64,000 nucleotides of DNA from Brevinematales bacterium (lineage in GTDB: Bacteria; Spirochaetota; Brevinematia; Brevinematales; JAOACQ01), in NCBI GenBank assembly GCA_037479045.1, contig JBBFLL010000012.1:2355-66354 (forward strand), read 5' to 3'. Within the stretch, counting starts at the first letter, position 1; every line of letters begins with the position of its first letter. Below the pieces are notes generated by a model. The model worked only from the letters and a program-made list of their open reading frames with translations, made no database searches and was not told the origin of the DNA. A program made the translations under genes and the position numbers. Positions 7,056-25,960 of this stretch are shown piece after piece.

Positions 7056-8465
7056 ATGAAAAATTTCATAATCTGCTTTTTGCTCGTCTTGAGTTCAAAA
7101 CTTTTTTCTGCCGTTAACATTTCATCTAACATCTCAATTGGTCCGGACTATCGTGTTGAGCTTGTTGGCATAGTGTTTGCCATTGCAACTTGTGATGATG
7201 ATTATTTCAAGGAAGAAAGGTATCTTACGGAGGTGAATAAATATTTTACACCTTATAAAAATCACCCTGTTATAAGTTTTATAAGGGAGGTAATTTCCAA
7301 TAGAATTAAGCTTTACAATCAACCTGAATTTGAATATTGGGCGAAATTAAGTGTTCTTTCAGAAATTTACACTATAATTTTGAACTACTCTGAGGATGAG
7401 AAATTATTATTAACAGATAAAAGATATTTCTACGTTAGAATACAGGATGCAAGTGTTATCAATCAAAAAAAATTAATTACTCTTTTAAAAGATTTTATAA
7501 AAGTATCAAAATATGAAAATTTCTATTCGAATGTGGCTTTAGTTCACTACAAGCCAAGAATAGACGAAATAACCAACAAAATCGATATTGAAAAGATTGT
7601 AGTAAATAATGAAAAATTTTTTGGAGAAAATGCTAAATATACAAGAATAATACTTTCGTATATTATCTATGGTTTCAGTGGTTTAAGTTTATTTTCTATT
7701 TCGGATGGTGTGATTGAATATAATTCACCAATCATACTTGTAAAAGAAAAAAGCTTTTATCCACTTTTATCAGAAGAGCTTTTTTACCATGAACTGGCCC
7801 ATCCATTCTTTAATTTTTCAATGGTTGAAAATTATTACAAATATGTGGATTTGTTCAGGACAAAGATAGGTGAGTATAGCGAAAGTATCAACATAGCTTA
7901 CGAAATTTTGAGAAACAATTATAATGAAAATACACAAAAGATTTTGTTTAGATACTATTTACTTGATGGATTTATTTCTGTAAAAGAGTTTTATGAATTA
8001 CTTATGAAATACCAGACTGAAAGAGATAAATATAAGACCTTTAATGAATTTTTTAAAGAGATACCAGAATATTTTGCTAAATTATCTGATAATGATATTG
8101 GTTATAAATTAACAGTAGGTACTTCTCTTACAATGAAAATAAGATATAATGAAATGGATTATAAAAAAGGTATTGCCATCTTTAAGGTTTTTTCCGATAT
8201 AAAATTACTTCAAGAAGGGGATATTATTTTAAATATTAATGGTAGAGATGCAAGGGAAAGATTTGCTTTTCACGAAGAATGGAGTAAGTCAAAAGAGGTT
8301 TCGATTGAAGTCTTAAAAAAAGATGGTGAAATAAAGAAAATAAAGTTAAATCCACAGGATGTGGAAATGATATGTTTAAAATATTCTCAAAAACATAATA
8401 TTTTTCAGGCCTTTTGCGTCATTAAAGATAAAATTTATGGCAACTGGTATAGAACTTTTGATTAA
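7056..8465 (+). CDS. Secreted DUF4932-like protein with HExxH zinc motif and C-terminal PDZ-like segment
   Basis: Signal peptide; DYRVELVGIV N-terminus; YHELAHPF; LQEGDIILNING PDZ-like motif. Confidence 0.6.
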   Translation: MKNFIICFLLVLSSKLFSAVNISSNISIGPDYRVELVGIVFAIATCDDDYFKEERYLTEVNKYFTPYKNHPVISFIREVISNRIKLYNQPEFEYWAKLSVLSEIYTIILNYSEDEKLLLTDKRYFYVRIQDASVINQKKLITLLKDFIKVSKYENFYSNVALVHYKPRIDEITNKIDIEKIVVNNEKFFGENAKYTRIILSYIIYGFSGLSLFSISDGVIEYNSPIILVKEKSFYPLLSEELFYHELAHPFFNFSMVENYYKYVDLFRTKIGEYSESINIAYEILRNNYNENTQKILFRYYLLDGFISVKEFYELLMKYQTERDKYKTFNEFFKEIPEYFAKLSDNDIGYKLTVGTSLTMKIRYNEMDYKKGIAIFKVFSDIKLLQEGDIILNINGRDARERFAFHEEWSKSKEVSIEVLKKDGEIKKIKLNPQDVEMICLKYSQKHNIFQAFCVIKDKIYGNWYRTFD

Positions 8466-8512
8466 AGATTAAGTTAAAAGATAAAGCTGGTTTTATTAGT
8501 AAGTGGTTAGCG

Positions 8513-8957
8513 TTTGCAAAGGCTCGCAATGACAGATAGTAGGGAGAAGGCAGGCAATGACTGGAAGAGGGTTGTAAACAACAGACTTTTGCAATCTAAG
8601 AGGCGAAGGATTCGCCGACAGCAAGCATTGTAGATTTTACCGCCCATAGCGTAGTCTGGCGTAGAAACGCAGGCGAAAACGAGGTGTAAGAACGCCGCCT
8701 GTTTGAGCTAGCCATTTGTAAAGGGGAGGAAGGAAATCTTTTTAAATTATAAAGGTTGGTATGTGTATGGAGTTTTCAAATGGCTGGCAAGTTCGGCGTT
8801 CCCGAGTTTGAGCCGATGCGTTTAAAGCCAGACGAAGCGTGGCGGCGGGTTTTCTTTCGGTTACCTTTCTTTTGCCCAAACAAAAGAAAGGTAACATAAG
8901 CTCTTATTCTTTCTGAACATTCAGAAAGAAAGTAAAATAAGTTTTTGACAACTTTTT
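8513..8957 (+). ncRNA. Structured non-coding repeat element, copy 1
   Basis: Homologous to 13571-14000; long interrupted rod 8640-8845 and 15-bp hairpin 8860-8895; GC-rich in an AT-rich background. Confidence 0.7.
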
Positions 8958-9086
8958 ATTTAAAAAATTGCCCTTTTAAAGAAAATTCAGGCAAGTTTTA
9001 AACTAATTTTATACATTACAATTTGTTATAAGAGCTTTATGAGGTATAATTTCTGAACAGGAAATAAAATAAAAAGGAGATTAAAA

Positions 9087-9812
9087 ATGAAAGTTTTAAA
9101 ACTATTCTCAGTATTATTAGTTTTTGTTCTTTTAACTTATGGTTGCAAAGGAAGAGTGAAAAGCAAGAATTTCATTATTGAGTATGATGCTATAGGTAAG
9201 TATAACAACTATAAGGAATGCCTTGCATACCTTGAAAAGAATTATCCTTCTATCACAAATTTTTTTGAAATTAACAAAATGGATAAAGTCAGAATAATTG
9301 TTTATGATAGCAAGGAAAAATTTATTAAAAAATCAAAGGCTCCAGATTGGGCCATTGCTGCCTGCATGGATAAAAAAACTGTGCTAACTTATTTGCCTTT
9401 TTATAATCCTAAAATTGGAAAAAGTTATTTAAATTACGATATGCTTCTTCATGAGTTTGTTCACTGTGCTATAAGATATAAGTTTCCTACAAACAGAATT
9501 CCTGTATGGATTGATGAATCAATGGCTCAGTATTTCTCAAAGACCTATCTCAATCCTACGTCTCTTGGATATATAAAGGAAGGAGATTATCCAACCTTTT
9601 TTGAAATTGAATCTTACTCAGGACAAAAAGTATATCAGGTCGGATATGTTTTAGCAGAGTTTATTTTAAAAAAACTTGGCAAGGATAAGATGTTCAAAAT
9701 TATTGAATGCGATGGCAATATAAAGAAAGCTCTGAACTTAACCACTGTAGAGCTTGAAGAGGAATGGCATAAGTATTTAAAGGAATATATAAGTAATAGT
9801 GTAAGTCTATGA
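9087..9812 (+). CDS. Lipoprotein zinc metallopeptidase (peptidase MA-like, gluzincin)
   Basis: Lipobox-like LTYGC; LLHEFVH...PVWIDESMAQY. Confidence 0.78.
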   Translation: MKVLKLFSVLLVFVLLTYGCKGRVKSKNFIIEYDAIGKYNNYKECLAYLEKNYPSITNFFEINKMDKVRIIVYDSKEKFIKKSKAPDWAIAACMDKKTVLTYLPFYNPKIGKSYLNYDMLLHEFVHCAIRYKFPTNRIPVWIDESMAQYFSKTYLNPTSLGYIKEGDYPTFFEIESYSGQKVYQVGYVLAEFILKKLGKDKMFKIIECDGNIKKALNLTTVELEEEWHKYLKEYISNSVSL

Positions 9813-9917
9813 AATGTCAGAATTATCAGTCAATAGATTTCTTTTATAACTTCATAAAAATAATAACTCATGGCATTCCAGATGGTAAGGTTGAAAAACT
9901 CAATTATCAATCATCAC

Positions 9918-9946
9918 TTGACATTTTTTAACTTATAACATATCAT
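9918..9946 (+). promoter_or_regulatory. Promoter for probably leaderless MNT-HEPN mRNA
   Basis: TTGACA-17 bp-TATCAT, then 6 nt to ATG 9953; no SD sequence. Confidence 0.6.
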
Positions 9947-9952
9947 AGATTT

Positions 9953-10282
9953 ATGCAAAGAGAGGATATTTTAAAGATTTCAAAAGAGATAATAACAGAA
10001 GAACTGGAAAAAGCTGGATATAATGTTTTAGAAATAATTCTTTTCGGTAGCCGTGCACGTGGTGATGAAAGTCCAGATAGTGATTGGGATTTTTATGTTG
10101 TTGTGGATAAAGATATTGATTTTAAGTCTAAAAAGAACATAATTGTTTCAATAAGAAGAAAAATGGCTTTAAATAAAATCCCAAATGATATTTTAATCCA
10201 GTCTAAAAATGAATCAGAAAAAAGAAAGATTAATCCGGGATATGTTTCTTACAATGTATTTAAAGAGGGAATGAGAATATAA
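9953..10282 (+). CDS. Minimal nucleotidyltransferase (MNT), putative antitoxin
   Basis: LFGSRARGD...SDWD motif. Confidence 0.9.
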   Translation: MQREDILKISKEIITEELEKAGYNVLEIILFGSRARGDESPDSDWDFYVVVDKDIDFKSKKNIIVSIRRKMALNKIPNDILIQSKNESEKRKINPGYVSYNVFKEGMRI

Positions 10283-10686
10283 TGGAAGAAATAGTAAAAA
10301 AGTGGATTACTAAAGCAGAAAACGATCTTAATAGTGCTAAAAATTTAATTGAAACAAAAAAACCAATCACTGATTCAATCTGTTTTCATTCTCAACAATG
10401 TGTGGAAAAATACTTAAAAGCATTTCTTACTTTCCATCATAAACCTTTCAGAAAAACTCATGACATTGCAGAGTTAATAGAAAATTGTAAAGAAATAGAC
10501 CCTGAGTTTGAAAACCTTTATGATATAAATATAGATAATCTGACAATATATGCCGTCGAACTTCGTTATCCAGATGACTTTTATATCCCTACTTTGCAAG
10601 AAGCCAAAGAGGCCCTTGAAATGGCAGAAAAAACAAGGGAATTTGTACTTGAAAAGCTTGCAAAGCTGGGATACTCAGAAAAGTAG
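10282..10686 (+). CDS. HEPN domain protein (partner of MNT)
   Basis: CFHSQQCVEKYLKA, KTHD, ELRYP; start overlaps the MNT stop. Confidence 0.9.
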   Translation: MEEIVKKWITKAENDLNSAKNLIETKKPITDSICFHSQQCVEKYLKAFLTFHHKPFRKTHDIAELIENCKEIDPEFENLYDINIDNLTIYAVELRYPDDFYIPTLQEAKEALEMAEKTREFVLEKLAKLGYSEK

Positions 10687-10754
10687 GAGAAAATCACTAT
10701 TTTTTTACTATTATTGAGATATTTTAACATAGGAGGAGGAGAGGAGATTTAAAT

Positions 10755-12395
10755 ATGTCTCTTTTATGGCCAGAAGATAAAAAAGAATTCATAAAAATAG
10801 ACGAATCAGTTTTTGATGATCTCGAACTTGAAAAAATCATAACTGAAATATCAAAAAACCATTATGAAAGAAACCTTGTAAGAGAATTTTTTACCCTTCT
10901 TCCTGTTGATGAGAGAGTTATTAAATACAGACAGGAGATTTTAGATGATCTTTCAAACTCAGAAAAGTTGACCTTTGAACTTGAAGATCTCCTTACTGAT
11001 TTTGAAACTATAACTACAAAAAATATTTACAGAAATGAAGATGCCTTTTACGAATTTGTAGATAATGTTTGTGAACTCGAAAGTTTTACAAAAGTTATAA
11101 AACGTCTCAAAAAGATATTTTCTGAAAACAAAATTAACTCTGAAGGACTTAAAAAATTAAAAAGCAAAATAGAAGAAATATCACTCTCAGAAGAATTCAA
11201 AAATCTTGAGTCTGAAATATTTAATATTGCAGATAAAATGAGAGGAGTAAAGAGTATAGCTATAGGAATAAATCTTGATAATAAAATGCGTCCGGCAGAG
11301 GCGGCCCTTATTGCTGTAAACAAGGAAAAATATATCGATCCATCTCAATTTTTCCTTGGGAAACTTTTTTCAAACAAAAGTGAAAAACCGCTTGTTTCTA
11401 TAGCCAAGCTTCATACACCGCCACTGAAGGAAGGATATGGAGGAGTTAAACTTGACCCTGACATTTATGGTTATGCAATAGAGCCAATCTTACTTCCGTT
11501 GTTTAATGATCTTCATAAGATTACTGAAAAAATATATAACAAATTAAGTAAAAGTTTAAAAAATTATAAGATTGACACTTCATTTTTAAAAAGTTTATAT
11601 TCCGAGCTTGTTATTTATTTGAGGATTGCAAGATTTATTAAGAAATATAGAGAAAGCGGACTTAATTTTACAAAACCAGAAATTATGGATAAAGGTAAGA
11701 AAATTATCGAAGTAAAAGATTCTTACAATATAAATCTTGCAATAAATATGTATTACAAGAAAAGCCTTGATGAACTTGTCTTCAATGACATTCAGATTAA
11801 TCAGGAGGAGGGAATAATAATATTAACAGGGCCCAATCAGGGAGGAAAAACAGTTTACACACAGAGTATTGGTATTGTTCAGATATTTTTTCAACTTGGG
11901 ATGTTTGTCCCCGGAAGTGAGGCAAGATTGAGCCCTGTTGATGGCATTTTTACACATTTTCAAAAAGAGGAAAATATTAACACAGGAACCGGTAGATTCG
12001 GCGATGAGGCTATCAGAATTAGAGAGATATTTGAAAGGGCCTCAGAAAATACTTTGATACTTATGAATGAGCCTTTTTCAAGCACAAATCCATCGGAGAG
12101 TATTTACTTACTGAAAGAAGTTTTAAAGGCTTTTGCAATGTTTGGAGCAAGAGTGGTGGTTGCCACTCATTTTCACGAGATTGCAGAAAACATTGAAGAT
12201 ATACGAGGCAAAACAATAGCTGTAAGCTATATTGCTACTGTTAAGAAAGAAAATGAAGATTTCCACAAAAGATTATATAAGGTTGTAAAATCAAAACCTG
12301 AAGGTAAAAGCTATGCAATCGAACTTGCAAAAAAGTATGGACTTGATTTTGAGGAACTGAAAAATATTATAAGTAAAAATAACAGAAAAGATTAA
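10755..12395 (+). CDS. MutS-family ATPase-domain protein lacking a mismatch-binding domain
   Basis: TGPNQGGKT, DGIFTHF, TGRF, LILMNEPFSST, ATHFHE. Confidence 0.85.
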   Translation: MSLLWPEDKKEFIKIDESVFDDLELEKIITEISKNHYERNLVREFFTLLPVDERVIKYRQEILDDLSNSEKLTFELEDLLTDFETITTKNIYRNEDAFYEFVDNVCELESFTKVIKRLKKIFSENKINSEGLKKLKSKIEEISLSEEFKNLESEIFNIADKMRGVKSIAIGINLDNKMRPAEAALIAVNKEKYIDPSQFFLGKLFSNKSEKPLVSIAKLHTPPLKEGYGGVKLDPDIYGYAIEPILLPLFNDLHKITEKIYNKLSKSLKNYKIDTSFLKSLYSELVIYLRIARFIKKYRESGLNFTKPEIMDKGKKIIEVKDSYNINLAINMYYKKSLDELVFNDIQINQEEGIIILTGPNQGGKTVYTQSIGIVQIFFQLGMFVPGSEARLSPVDGIFTHFQKEENINTGTGRFGDEAIRIREIFERASENTLILMNEPFSSTNPSESIYLLKEVLKAFAMFGARVVVATHFHEIAENIEDIRGKTIAVSYIATVKKENEDFHKRLYKVVKSKPEGKSYAIELAKKYGLDFEELKNIISKNNRKD

Positions 12396-12452
12396 AAATT
12401 ATTGAAAACAATACAATTTTTTATTTTGATAATTGAAAGAAGAGGTGGCAAA

Positions 12453-12899
12453 ATGAAATACTTTGCATACGGTTCAAATATGGATCCTGAAAGAATGAAG
12501 GAAAGAAATGTTAATTTTACTTTGCGAACACTTGCAGTTTTAGAAGGATGGGAAATAACCTTTAATAAGACATCCTCAAGAAATCCTAAAGAAGGATATG
12601 CAAATATCACAAGGAAAGAAGGTAAAACTGTTGAAGGTGTTTTATACGAAATAAATGAGTCAGATTTAAAAATACTTGACAAATATGAAGGCTATCCAGA
12701 TCATTACGAAAGAAAAACAGTTAAAGTAAAGTTGAAAAATGGAGAATTAATAGAAGCTTACACTTATATAGCTAATCCCAAAAAAGTTAAAAAAGGACTA
12801 AAACCAAGCAGGGAATATCTTGAACATCTTTTAAAAGGACATGATTTGTTAAGTGAAAAATATTGCAAAAATCTTGAAGAAGTAGAAACTATTGACTGA
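12453..12899 (+). CDS. Gamma-glutamylcyclotransferase (AIG2-like)
   Basis: MKYFAYGSNM, VEGVLY, LDKYEG; start corrected to ATG 12453 after GAGG. Confidence 0.9.
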   Translation: MKYFAYGSNMDPERMKERNVNFTLRTLAVLEGWEITFNKTSSRNPKEGYANITRKEGKTVEGVLYEINESDLKILDKYEGYPDHYERKTVKVKLKNGELIEAYTYIANPKKVKKGLKPSREYLEHLLKGHDLLSEKYCKNLEEVETID

Positions 12900-13089
12900 T
12901 AACTAAGTATTGAAAAATAATCTTTCCATTTCAAATTTTATATAATTTGGCTTTAACAGAAACTCAATTTTGCTGGAATAGTAAAAACTTTTGAAATATA
13001 AGATGAACATTCAAGATTTGTATATTTTATGAAATCATTCACTTATTGAACTCAAACCATGCCAAAATATAACTCCCCTCTCTTTTTTT

Positions 13090-13118
13090 TTGACAAAACT
13101 CGCCCAACCTGTTAAAAT
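13090..13118 (+). promoter_or_regulatory. Sigma70 promoter of the riboswitch/metE transcript
   Basis: TTGACA-17 bp-TAAAAT immediately before the riboswitch. Confidence 0.7.
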
Positions 13119-13123
13119 AATTC

Positions 13124-13275
13124 TATCGGGTGGAAGGAATTCCTTAATAAGGAAGCACGGTGAAAATCCGTCACAGCCCCCGCTACTGTGAGGCAGACGA
13201 AAGCCCAAAAAGCCACTGGGAAACCGGGAAGGCGGGTGAGTAGGATGAAGCCAAGTCAGGAGACTTGCCCGAAAT
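13124..13275 (+). ncRNA. Cobalamin (B12) riboswitch
   Basis: GGAAGCACGGTGAAAATCCGT, GCCCCCGCTACTGT, GCCACTGGGAAACCGGGAAGGC, B12 box AAGTCAGGAGACTTGCC; upstream of metE. Confidence 0.95.
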
Positions 13276-13570
13276 AATCGAACGGAGGGTTCATTATGTC
13301 ACGTCGAAAATATTAGCTTTTCTCTTGATTCAAGCAAGTGTTCTATCCATATTTATTTTTTTATGAAAGAAATATTTTTTAAAATCAGTAGTTTTAGGTT
13401 TATATGAATTTTAAGAAAAATTTTTCTTTCTAAATAGGAAAATAGGTTGAGTGCTTAATTTTTTGTGGATTTTTATATCCTGTCGGTAGGCTACTTTAAG
13501 AAAAAGGAAAATTTTCAGTAATTACCTACCCGGCTGGGGTATGTGGCTGTCGATGAGATTGTTTCGCCTT

Positions 13571-14000
13571 TTTGCAAAGGCTCGCAATGACATATAGTAA
13601 AAAGCAGACTATCAATGAATTGAAAAGAATTGTAAAAAATGGACTTTTGCAATCTAAGAGGCGAAGGAATTGCCGTCTGCAAGCATTGTTGCTGTTACTA
13701 TTGAGGAGATTAAATTTCCGCCCATAGCGGAGCAAATCGTAGCAATGCCTGCGAAGGCGAGGTATAAGAGCGGTGTTGTTTGAACCCTCACCTTGTAAGT
13801 ATAAACAAGGATTTTAGATAAAAATTACAAAATAAAATGAAGTATTAAAAAGCTTTCAAGGTGAGGGTGAGTTCCCCGCTCCCGAAGCCTGAGCAGTAGC
13901 ATTGCAAGATTTGCGAAGCGTGGGCGGCGGGTTTTCTTTCGGTTACCTTTCTTTTGCCCGAACAAAAGAAAGGTAACAAAGGGTTTTTAACAACTTTTTA
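13571..14000 (+). ncRNA. Structured non-coding repeat element, copy 2
   Basis: Homologous to 8513-8957 with compensatory stem changes; rod 13718-13927, hairpin 13942-13977. Confidence 0.7.
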
Positions 14001-14035
14001 TAAAAAAGTCGAATTTTATATCTTCAGGAGGCATT

Positions 14036-16297
14036 ATGAAAACAACAATTATTGGTTTTCCAAGAATTGGAATTAAAAGAGAGCTTAAATTCTCGATTGA
14101 AAAATTTCTGAAAGGCGATTTGAGAGAATCAGAGCTTCAAAATTTTGTCGAAAACCACATCAACTCTCAGTTTGAAATTTTAAAATCAAACAGGCTTGAT
14201 TTCATTCCAGTCAATGATTTTTCTCTTTACGACAATATGCTTGATATGGCTTTTCTTCTTGGTGCAATTGAAAAAGAATATCTTGATAACAATCTTTCAA
14301 CACTTCAGAAATACTTTGCTGTTGCAAAAGGTTTTCAAAATGAACACTATGACCTTAAGGCTTATGAAATGAAAAAATGGTTTGATACAAACTATCACTA
14401 CATTGTCCCAAAACTCTCAAAAAATCTTGATTACAAAGTAAATTTTGAATTTCTTGATGAAAAAATAAAAATTGCAAAGAATTCCCTTTCAACTTTCAGG
14501 CTTGAATTGATTGGACCTTTTACATTTCTCAAACTTTCAAAGGCAAAAGAAGGAACAACCTTTCAATTTCTTGAAAAAATTACAACCAATTATTTAAAAA
14601 TAATTGAACACTTGAAAGAAAAAAATATTGAATACATTTCCTTTGAAGAACCATCGCTTTGCACAGAATTAACTAAGGCAGATGTCGAAATATTTTCAGA
14701 AATATACAGATCTCTCCTCAAAGAAAAAGGTAATATGAAAGTAATTTTGCAGACATATTTTGGAGATGTAAGGGAAACCTACAAAGAACTCATAAATCTT
14801 GACTTTGATGTTATTGGTCTGGATTTCGTGGCTGGGGAGAAAAACTTTTCTTTAATTGAAAAATACGGTTTTGATAATAATAAAATTCTCTCGGCTGGAA
14901 TAATAAATGGTAGAAATATATGGAAAGCAAATTATAACGTTGTGTTTGACAAAATAAACGCAATTCTTGAAAAGGTCGATTTCAATAAACTATGGCTTTC
15001 AAGCTCCTGCTCACTCCTTCACGTCCCTTATACAACACAAAATGAAACAAAATTTCCAGTTGAAATAAAAGAAAGGCTTTCTTTTGCAATTGAAAAATTG
15101 TCTGAACTCAATGATATAAAAACATTGATTGAACTAACAAACCCGACTGAAAATGACATTTTTAAGAAGAATCAAGAAATTTTCTCAAAGGAAAAAAGTT
15201 ATATAATTCCAGAACTTAAGGACAAAATAAACTCGCTTAAAGACAGTGATTTCAAGAGAAGTTTACCTCGCAAAGAAAGGATTGATCTCCAGAGAAAAAA
15301 TTTAAAACTGCCCATGCTTCCGACAACAACAATAGGATCATTCCCTCAAACTGAAGATTTGAGAAGAGAAAGAAAATTATTCAAAGATGGACAAATAAGT
15401 CTCAATGAATATGAAAACTTCATAAGAGAAAAAATAAAAGAAACCATAAAAAAACAGGAAGAAATTGGAATTGACGTGCTGGTTCATGGTGAATATGAAA
15501 GAAATGATATGGTCGAATACTTTGCAGAATTTCTCACCGGCATTATTACAACAGAAAACGGCTGGGTCCAGTCTTATGGCACAAGAGCAACAAAACCACC
15601 AATAATCTTTGGTGATATTAAGAAAAAAGAATCAATGACAGTTAAGTGGATAAGTTATGCACAATCACTCACAGATAAACCGGTAAAAGCTATACTTACA
15701 GGTCCTGCAACAATAATTAATTGGTCATTCTCAAGAGAAGATATCCCGCTAAAAGAAGTAGCTTTCCAGATAGCTTTAGCTTTAAGGGAAGAAATTAAAG
15801 AATTAATGGAGAAAAACATTAAAATCATTCAGGTTGATGAGGCTGCTTTCAGAGAAAAATTCCCCCTTCGCAAATCAGAGCTTAAAAACTATCTTGACTG
15901 GGTTATCTCTGCTTTCAAATTGGCTACTTCTCACATTAAACCAGAAGTTCAGTTGCACACACATATGTGCTACAGTGAATTCAGTGATACTATAAACTTT
16001 ATTGAAGAAATGGATGCCGACGTCCTTACAATAGAAGCGGCAAAGTCAGACCTTGCTATCCTTGAGGCAGTAAGAAATTACTCAAAATCAAGAGAGATAG
16101 GTCCCGGTGTTTACGATATTCATTCCCCACGAATTCCGAAGGAAGAAGAGTTGAAAGTTATAATAAAAGAAATGCTACAATATATACCGAAAGAAAATTT
16201 ATGGATAAATCCAGACTGTGGACTTAAAACAAGGAAACCAGAAGAGGTCTGGCCATCACTCAAGAATATGGTTGAAGCTGCAAAGAGTTTGAGATAA
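14036..16297 (+). CDS. metE: Cobalamin-independent methionine synthase
   Basis: GFPRIG, MKKWFDTNYHY, PTTTIGSFPQT, HTHMCYSE, NPDCGLKTR. Confidence 0.98.
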   Translation: MKTTIIGFPRIGIKRELKFSIEKFLKGDLRESELQNFVENHINSQFEILKSNRLDFIPVNDFSLYDNMLDMAFLLGAIEKEYLDNNLSTLQKYFAVAKGFQNEHYDLKAYEMKKWFDTNYHYIVPKLSKNLDYKVNFEFLDEKIKIAKNSLSTFRLELIGPFTFLKLSKAKEGTTFQFLEKITTNYLKIIEHLKEKNIEYISFEEPSLCTELTKADVEIFSEIYRSLLKEKGNMKVILQTYFGDVRETYKELINLDFDVIGLDFVAGEKNFSLIEKYGFDNNKILSAGIINGRNIWKANYNVVFDKINAILEKVDFNKLWLSSSCSLLHVPYTTQNETKFPVEIKERLSFAIEKLSELNDIKTLIELTNPTENDIFKKNQEIFSKEKSYIIPELKDKINSLKDSDFKRSLPRKERIDLQRKNLKLPMLPTTTIGSFPQTEDLRRERKLFKDGQISLNEYENFIREKIKETIKKQEEIGIDVLVHGEYERNDMVEYFAEFLTGIITTENGWVQSYGTRATKPPIIFGDIKKKESMTVKWISYAQSLTDKPVKAILTGPATIINWSFSREDIPLKEVAFQIALALREEIKELMEKNIKIIQVDEAAFREKFPLRKSELKNYLDWVISAFKLATSHIKPEVQLHTHMCYSEFSDTINFIEEMDADVLTIEAAKSDLAILEAVRNYSKSREIGPGVYDIHSPRIPKEEELKVIIKEMLQYIPKENLWINPDCGLKTRKPEEVWPSLKNMVEAAKSLR

Positions 16298-25736: not shown

Positions 25737-25960
25737 TGTCACCTTTTCTTTTGTCAAACGTCACAAAAGAAAAGGTGACACCAAAAGAAAAAGACTTTCT
25801 CGCCTTGTGGCTTGTTCAAAAGCGTAGCATTGAAAAAATCTACCCTCGCACATTCGCAATCCTTTGCTCAACGTGCTCGGGGCGGAAAACCTTCTGTTTT
25901 CCTTTGTAAAAAGTCAAGTATGATTTTTTCAGAAGTTTTAATCACAAGCCAACGGCAATC
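25737..25960 (-). repeat. Distant relative of the structured repeat element
   Basis: 18-bp hairpin TGTCACCTTTTCTTTTGT/ACAAAAGAAAAGGTGACA preceded on the minus strand by TTTTCTTTTGG, as in copies 1 and 2; internal GTTGAGC...GCGAAT motif. Confidence 0.55.

Follow-up and report, generated by a model that had tools for sequence, protein, structure and literature searches.

A dispersed family of structured elements in hot-spring bacteria, ending in a candidate triple-helix cap

A 64,000-nt stretch of DNA from a Brevinematales bacterium (the window: positions 2,355 to 66,354, forward strand, of contig JBBFLL010000012.1, assembly GCA_037479045.1) carries two copies, A and B, of a structured element. 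Our analysis indicated that they are members of a previously undescribed, dispersed family found in hot-spring bacteria, and the existence of this family is real and well supported. The window is part of the contig that we designated C12; the assembly (G000) comprises 2.35 Mb in 57 contigs and is 98% complete. The conserved unit of the family is about 255 nt. Its first part, an interrupted rod of some 210 nt, is closed by a G/C helix; a module that we designated the paperclip comes directly after it and is made up of a U/C strand, a 5-7-nt linker and a hairpin with a homopurine 3' arm. We judge the chances to be about even that the element acts in cis, as RNA, and blocks nucleases. The candidate triple-helix cap is the most interesting part of the finding; its function, and the mobility of the family, we infer. 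The features of the two copies are as follows.

8513..8540, + strand: copy A, 5' conserved block TTTGCAAAGGCTCGCAATGACAGATAGT, identical to 13571-13598 of copy B
8584..8639, + strand: copy A, genus-specific 5' module GACTTTTGCAATCTAAGAGGCGAAGGATTCGCC... (also written GACTTTTGCAATC...)
8640..8849, + strand: copy A, rod with helices P1-P7 (fold, consensus structure, model match of 262.4 bits, covariation)
8850..8895, + strand: copy A, paperclip, with candidate third strand TTTTCTTTC (8850-8858), GG and hairpin GTTACCTTTCTTTTG/CCCAAA/CAAAAGAAAGGTAAC (8860-8895)
8903..8959, + strand: copy A, optional second hairpin TTCTTTCTGAA..TTCAGAAAGAA plus T-run, followed by the shared block GTTTTTGACAACTTTTTAT
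13571..13598, + strand: copy B, 5' conserved block, identical to that of copy A
13642..13717, + strand: copy B, 5' module, with 20 nt inserted compared with copy A (A/B alignment)
13718..13931, + strand: copy B, rod of another subfamily than that of copy A, its helices replaced yet pairing (model match of 279.3 bits)
13932..13977, + strand: copy B, paperclip, with candidate third strand 13932-13940 and hairpin 13942-13977

The original prediction, made from the sequence of the window, described two copies of a ~400-nt element that share loops and flanks but differ in their helices, which still pair. Column identity was 80% in a MAFFT alignment of 8480-8990 with 13540-14040. Its identical or almost identical parts were the 15-bp 3' hairpin, the 5' blocks and the internal-loop motifs rich in purines, while the helices and the ~60-nt apical loop differed. 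The alignment and the folds thus bore out the prediction, and every helix pair that it quoted was present at its coordinates, such as GTCTGGC 8654/GCCAGAC 8827 in copy A and GCAAATC 13732/GATTTGC 13908 in copy B. Its U-G pair in copy A is also genuine: T8709 reads C, giving a C-G pair, in a metagenomic strain variant (L038) and in contigs from three RNA libraries. The two copies are real, but they are not a pair of single units; they belong to a modular family with many copies. This mosaic, multi-copy nature was overlooked, as were the mirror-repeat U/C strand in front of the 3' hairpin and the fact that the widely conserved unit does not include the 5' block.

Both copies are predicted to fold into a long rod with interruptions and, after it, a hairpin; this fold is far more stable than that of shuffled sequences (z = -5.8 for A and -9.0 for B; none of 100 shuffles folded equally well). 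RNAalifold, applied to a MAFFT alignment of nine copies, gave 63 pairs, 22 of which were changed on both sides. We then assembled a covariation alignment of 37 rows, 35 of them distinct, from 12 genomes and metagenome contigs; one row holds just a paperclip and another an antisense match. Standard pairing was found in 95.2% of 1925 cells, compared with 65.1% in shuffles (0 of 500 reached the observed value) and 42-45% when the partners were slid by one to three columns. Across the 35 distinct sequences, 59 of the 63 pairs had changed on both sides. In one relative, G009, the copies differ throughout their helices yet still pair. The rod helices contained 37 G-T or T-G against 17 A-C or C-A combinations among 1364 cells.

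The unpaired parts behaved differently from the helices. In copy A, the rod loops are GUA/AA, a tandem GA, a UGUAA bulge and UGUUUGA/GAGUU, while the apical loop (8719-8776) is unconserved. Four unpaired motifs, all purine-rich on the + strand only, are kept across genera.

Motif 1: GCGUAG opposite CAAGC
Motif 2: GCGAA.. opposite ..UGAGC, with tandem G.A
Motif 3: a 5' bulge ending in UAA
Motif 4: UGUYYGA and GAGUU, flanking the apical hairpin

The asymmetric loops are fixed and the symmetric helices variable, the reverse of what terminal repeats or homogenised arms would predict, which indicates that one strand folds. The original prediction of selection on a ~200-nt interrupted rod with GA-rich internal loops is supported by the covariation and by these motifs. 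The strand asymmetry suggests that selection acts on the + strand fold, most simply as RNA. A small open reading frame (ORF) in the apical loop, read by eye (16 codons in A, 3 in B), was rejected because it is not conserved between the copies.

To follow the family beyond the window, we searched with BLAST using copies A and B and found fragments on 21 of the 57 contigs of the genome, many of them at contig ends. We also built a covariance model, R1, from the MAFFT alignment of nine copies; a model of this kind had been proposed with the original prediction, and searching genomes with it revealed a large family. R1 detected five full-length rods in this genome and, at E<=0.01, gave matches in 15 of the order's 35 genomes, as many as 28 in a single one. 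These comprised 9 of 11 other genomes of the same family, all 4 genomes of a second family (shorter forms) and one weak match elsewhere. In an even sample of the phylum, 6 of 151 genomes had matches, with one weak match outside those two families. Copy number ranged from 0 to 28 among relatives. Element sequence was present in runs of 15 studies, mostly labelled as hot-spring, mat or sediment metagenomes. A pattern scan of genome contigs gave a single locus, and a metagenome scan gave 19 loci, of which 8 are family members and 11 resemble chance matches. A related uncultured organism has near-identical copies, loops included, at several loci (L039, L041, L045, L046, L048). The strain variant L038 shares synteny with copy A from the 5' flank up to the end of the element and diverges right after it; its rod differs from that of copy A by just two substitutions, one of which converts the U-G pair to C-G.

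The copies are mosaics of separable modules: a small hairpin repeat, the genus-specific 5' module, the rod, the 3' hairpin with its preceding T/C-rich strand, the optional second hairpin and a T-rich tail. The 5' block TTTGCAAAGGCTCGCAATGACAGATAGT is the 3' half of the small hairpin repeat, GAGATTGC..GCTCGCAATGAC, and a small hairpin repeat with GCTCGCAATGAC also stands alone on C5, C39, C15 and the metagenome contig L029. The module GACTTTTGCAATCTAAGAGGCGAAGGATTCGCC has seven copies in this genome (two on C12, one each on C29, C14, C40 and C5, and a partial one on C39) and does not precede the rods of other genera or of the metagenome relative. The second hairpin occurs on C25, C14, C1 and L038 and is missing from copy B; terminator prediction made no call on it. 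Recombinants between two rod subfamilies occur, some copies are interrupted by insertion sequences (ISs), and one rod on C29 holds a different structured element in its apical region. Short tandem units resembling AAAGTC/AAAGTT (e.g. AGTCGAAAGTCGAAAGTCCAAAGTC) lie just upstream of some copies (G000 C29:20740-20780, C27:22060-22100 and C37:~50-120).

The inability of the original prediction to match the element to a named family agreed with our searches. In Rfam 15 (4227 models, cmscan at the gathering score), the cobalamin riboswitch was the sole family in the whole window, and at E<=10 region 8300-14200 gave nothing on either copy beyond sub-threshold noise and no HEARO match. Thirteen related loci gave sub-threshold miRNA-like hairpin matches only, and the other paperclip-capped bodies had no Rfam match. 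Plasmid and phage collections (blastn, distant mode) contained no match to the element, and literature searches turned up no account of such an element.

We analysed the paperclip in more detail. The loop-proximal stem of the 3' hairpin is a homopyrimidine/homopurine tract, CUUUCUUUUG / CAAAAGAAAG, and the strand upstream of it, UUUUCUUUC (8850-8858 in A; 13932-13940 in B), is an exact parallel Hoogsteen partner of the purine arm, with U for A and C for G; in copy A it matches AAAAGAAAG at 9 of 9 positions. Among all the DNA surveyed, 39 distinct hairpins had at least 8 contiguous parallel Hoogsteen matches upstream, in runs of 8-10. The mirror arrangement scored better than a direct repeat of the Watson-Crick arm in 33 of them, tied in 6 and lost in none; shuffling gave p<=0.01 in 38 of the 39, and the linker was mostly 5-7 nt. 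Hoogsteen runs on the opposite side of the same hairpins reached only 4-5. There were 13 variants of the purine tract, each with a matching upstream strand, such as AAAGAAAAG with TTTCTTTTC and AAAGAAAG with TTTCTTTC. Purine polarity was flipped in about 6 of 239 tract cells, compared with minority polarity in 253 of 1266 rod cells and 34 of 141 cells of the hairpin base. A mirror repeat is meaningless to a protein that reads duplex; it argues against a simple alternative hairpin and is a signature of a Y.R-Y triplex. Judged by its sequence, the upstream strand is compatible with a Y.R-Y helix of 8-10 triples, making this module a potential paperclip.

The paperclip is reused beyond the rod. 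The pattern TTTCTTT-N5-10-CTTTCTTT-N4-18-AAAGAAAG was found in 40 of 401 genomes of the phylum and 25 of 152 genera, with about 177 matches by a hand tally; a backwards control gave 2 matches. In four other genomes and in a second element of this genome (type 2), paperclips end different conserved bodies of about 170-230 nt. In the window, the type 2 element is as follows.

25738..25957, - strand: type 2 structured body with its own paperclip variant (TTTTTCTTTT ... AAAAGAAAAGG); copies align

Six copies of the type 2 element (GCCGUUGGCUUGUG ... CCCGAGCAC..GUGCGAGGG ...) in the genome align and fold alike. We tentatively propose, at somewhat less than even confidence, that the paperclip truly forms an intramolecular RNA triple helix of the pyrimidine motif, with 8-10 triples, the first long ENE-like clamp in bacteria, and that it is an exonuclease-proof cap common to unrelated multi-copy families of structured RNA across the phylum, the rod being one such body with its own docking motifs.

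The genomic context gave the direction of the elements relative to genes. Of the 18 paperclip pattern matches in this genome, 16 lay on the same strand as the ORF (at least 100 aa) downstream of them, often 39-200 nt away from it, and the upstream ORF was co-oriented in 8 of 10 known cases; one of the 18, inside an ORF, is probably a false match. A copy takes up the space between two ORFs whose translations, at contig ends, read as leuC and leuD. Other copies lie 30-70 nt before start codons, and in G009 rods end 30-36 nt before the starts of LysM-domain genes. An ORF-based orientation survey of the loci in other genomes was discarded because spurious antisense ORFs make it unreliable in GC-richer genomes. 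Three metatranscriptomic runs yielded contigs (236, 198 and 151 nt) with sequence of the copy A rod, including its copy-specific loop; they cover 8609-8844, 8647-8844 and 8638-8788. The ends at 8609 and 8844 fall in sequence common to the copies and are thus probably assembly breaks rather than RNA ends. None of the contigs from the three runs covered metE, copy B or the flanking genes; this was uninformative and was not used as evidence.

We propose that the element would sit within transcripts between co-oriented genes and act in cis. The rod, together with a clamp of U.A-U and C+.G-C triples, would form a very stable barrier to exonucleases and processing, which would protect flanking mRNA segments and allow the element itself to persist. 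The element would spread as a repeat, consistent with a population of copies that is insertion-polymorphic, mosaic, nested and recombining at its ends.

Several observations weigh against this proposal. The covariation alignment was fitted to the model, which favours pairing; however, the margin was large and the MAFFT alignment agreed. G-U pairs are scarce, at 2.7% of rod cells. The TTTCTTT core of the third strand is itself mirror-symmetric, so that mirror and direct repeat differ at the flanks only; C+.G-C triples hold only weakly when the pH is neutral and the temperature high; and five base pairs of stem stand between the triplex tract and the 2-nt GG link, with a predicted geometry that is plausible. 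Terminator prediction found no canonical terminator after the rod or the paperclip. The contigs from RNA libraries give neither strand nor ends and may derive from DNA in the libraries. Genes tend to follow replication, and strand-specific insertion of DNA could also yield the orientation bias. Finally, no target-site duplication or mobilising enzyme was identified.

The site of copy B bears on how the family moves. It lies between two features that bracket an inserted stretch.

13111..13286, + strand: cobalamin riboswitch upstream of copy B (Rfam RF00174, 117.8 bits)
14036-16297: metE, which with the riboswitch brackets the stretch holding copy B

A congener, G001, lacks the element here: its cobalamin riboswitch is followed by the start of metE after about 180 nt. 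In the window the distance is about 750 nt, so that 13111-14036 holds about 570 extra nt including copy B. The metE leader has diverged in G001, which blurs the exact ends of the insertion and any duplications. Control of metE by B12 may be altered or bypassed by the inserted stretch. Separately, an IS with a 16-bp terminal repeat, CAGACTGTGTGAAAAC, and a DDE_Tnp_1_6 transposase is unrelated to the element and inserts into it: all five IS-end junctions in the genome (C25:29627, C29:21027, C30:20375, C39:104 and C40:76) lie inside a rod or a type 2 element, suggesting that the IS prefers these structured repeats as targets.

The absence of copy B from the orthologous site of G001, together with the many copies at contig ends, is consistent with a different account, which we regard as unlikely though still worth weighing: the element would be a non-autonomous mobile DNA whose single-stranded fold is recognised in trans by an enzyme such as an IS200/RAYT-like Y1 (HUH) protein, with the structure selected for transposition. 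Three 5' half-copies, on C15, C5 and L029, end directly after TGTTTGARC, suggesting a defined breakage site, and tandem G.A pairs and Y.R-Y triplexes form in DNA too. This genome has four IS200/RAYT-like Y1 genes (C15:40484-41131, C8:36921-37529, C17:25696-26238 and C4:46986-47564), one with an in-frame TGA, and by a hand tally a Y1 homologue was present in 22 of 40 genomes with a paperclip and in 45 of 361 without; since the genomes are interrelated, these counts are confounded by relatedness and the co-occurrence is a lead only. However, the genomes richest in copies (G009, G007, G022, G015 and G019) had no Y1 homologue at E<=1e-8, and no Y1 gene of this genome adjoins a paperclip: the one on C15 is flanked by ABC-permease genes without repeats, and the others are more than 1 kb from any paperclip. 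No TnpB (PF07282) was found in the window's own genome, the one searched, and neither ends nor a target site have been defined. Moreover, copies within a genome have diverged yet still pair, which is more readily explained by constraint on each locus than by decay following insertion. The original prediction had offered a functional RNA and a structure-recognised mobile element as alternatives, and the evidence bears on both: the element behaves as a dispersed, insertion-polymorphic repeat and also shows strand-specific constraints.

A further account, which we consider improbable, holds that the copies are stand-alone genes for trans-acting noncoding RNAs, either paralogous small RNAs or the scaffold of a ribonucleoprotein, with their own promoter and with the paperclip guarding the 3' end in the manner of MALAT1. 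The conserved non-Watson-Crick motifs do resemble docking sites for protein or RNA, different bodies share the same 3' cap, and the contigs from RNA libraries are confined to the rod. The block at which A and B begin to be conserved is weakly promoter-like, but the promoter-like match (9 of 12 positions) was obtained in copy B only, was no better than in shuffles and failed in A, and the 5' block is absent in other genera. Trans-acting genes would also sit poorly with copies that fill gaps between cistrons, as at the leuC-like and leuD-like ORFs or just ahead of start codons, and a copy number of 0 to 28 among relatives is unlike that of a housekeeping RNA. No partner protein co-occurs consistently. 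DUF3467 was considered as a general partner and rejected, as it lies upstream of the rod in duplicated cassettes for LysM proteins only: 4 rod matches stand beside the 7 DUF3467 matches of G009, 1 beside the 3 of G008, and one further case is in L029, while none of the housekeeping paralogues of DUF3467 has an adjacent rod.

Very improbable is an ordinary miniature inverted-repeat transposable element or DNA palindrome, in which the terminal inverted repeats of different parent ISs co-evolve or the arms are homogenised, with no selection on a folded strand: the two arms do make up long inverted repeats with a variable centre between them, G-T pairs are few and subfamilies explain many double changes, but the symmetric parts vary while the asymmetric purine-rich loops are fixed, no parent IS with rod-arm ends was found, the sole IS at these loci has the unrelated 16-bp terminal repeat and interrupts the element, and a mirror-repeat strand of kept purine polarity is meaningless for terminal repeats.

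Several neighbouring features were recorded alongside. At L087 (G009:C3:584500-602571), four tandem cassettes each run from a DUF3467 gene through a rod with paperclip to a LysM-domain protein with a variable C-terminus; an IS-like ORF of 439 aa lies among them, and the arrangement resembles a polymorphic-toxin locus. At C37:143-259 (- strand) of G000, a DUF3467 gene of the cassette type is cut after about 43 codons by other repeat sequence. L029 (JAWAEI010000023.1, 5900-6700, - strand) has a truncated and a full copy of the element beside a DUF3467 gene on an 8.8-kb contig of a metagenome-assembled genome titled Candidatus Pacearchaeota; the contig may be mis-binned. In the window, between copies A and B, a nucleotidyltransferase (PF01909/PF18765) and HEPN (PF05168) pair resembling a toxin-antitoxin system (9953-10686, + strand) is followed by a MutS domain V protein (10755-12395).

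If the proposed cis-acting role is true, the paperclip would be a bacterial RNA stability module akin to the ENEs of MALAT1, PAN and transposons, of another topology and reused on diverse dispersed RNA bodies, and it would offer a directly testable system for triple helices that block bacterial nucleases. The family would be a new one of structured RNAs, with natural variation sufficient for structure work, and a thermophile source of very stable RNA parts. Even on an ordinary reading, these repeats fragment assemblies, mark recombination breakpoints between strains and attract IS insertions, and about 570 nt are wedged between a cobalamin riboswitch and the metE gene that it should control.

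The element was compared with several known systems. For group II introns and retrons, the genome contained no reverse transcriptase (PF00078; the window's own genome, 98% complete), and Rfam gave no intron match. For an IS200/IS605-derived element or a TnpB/IscB omega RNA, there was no PF07282 protein in the genome and no HEARO match at E<=10. The large noncoding RNAs OLE, ROOL, GOLLD, raiA and HEARO/omega RNA are likewise long, highly structured and covarying, and some are multi-copy or linked to mobile elements; the present element differs in having no Rfam match at E<=10 and no TnpB or IscB partner, and in being rod-shaped rather than multi-domain.

Like ERIC/IRU, Correia, BOX/RUP and Bacillus cereus bcr, the element is an interspersed structured repeat. 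Those repeats are about 100-400 nt, fold as RNA and are co-transcribed, some with compensatory changes. The present element has no sequence or Rfam relation to them, shows deep covariation across at least two taxonomic families, and carries a 3' module common to unrelated bodies across the phylum. Its closeness to REP/BIME and RAYT systems lies in being multi-copy, intergenic, palindromic, built of mosaic modules, placed within operons and preferred as an IS target; REP/BIME sequences stabilise upstream mRNA against 3' exonucleases. REPs, however, are 20-40 nt, compared with a rod of about 210 nt plus the paperclip (a unit of about 255 nt); no RAYT gene here is flanked by rod or paperclip elements; and REPs have nothing that corresponds to the conserved non-Watson-Crick loops or to the mirror-repeat triplex strand.

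The ENEs of MALAT1 and PAN offer what would be the closest analogy for the cap: a run of U.A-U triples with interspersed C+.G-C that clamps a purine tract, with a proposed protection against exonucleases. A 2026 review (PMC13541005) counts riboswitches and a group II intron among bacterial triple helices and places some ENEs in transposable-element RNAs. The topology differs. The clamp of an ENE is a U-rich internal loop that holds an A-rich tail at the 3' end, a feature that the paperclip does not have; here, the U/C strand 5' of the hairpin would bind the purine arm of that same hairpin. As in an ENE, the pyrimidine strand of the paperclip is, by sequence, Hoogsteen-compatible with a purine tract held in a duplex.

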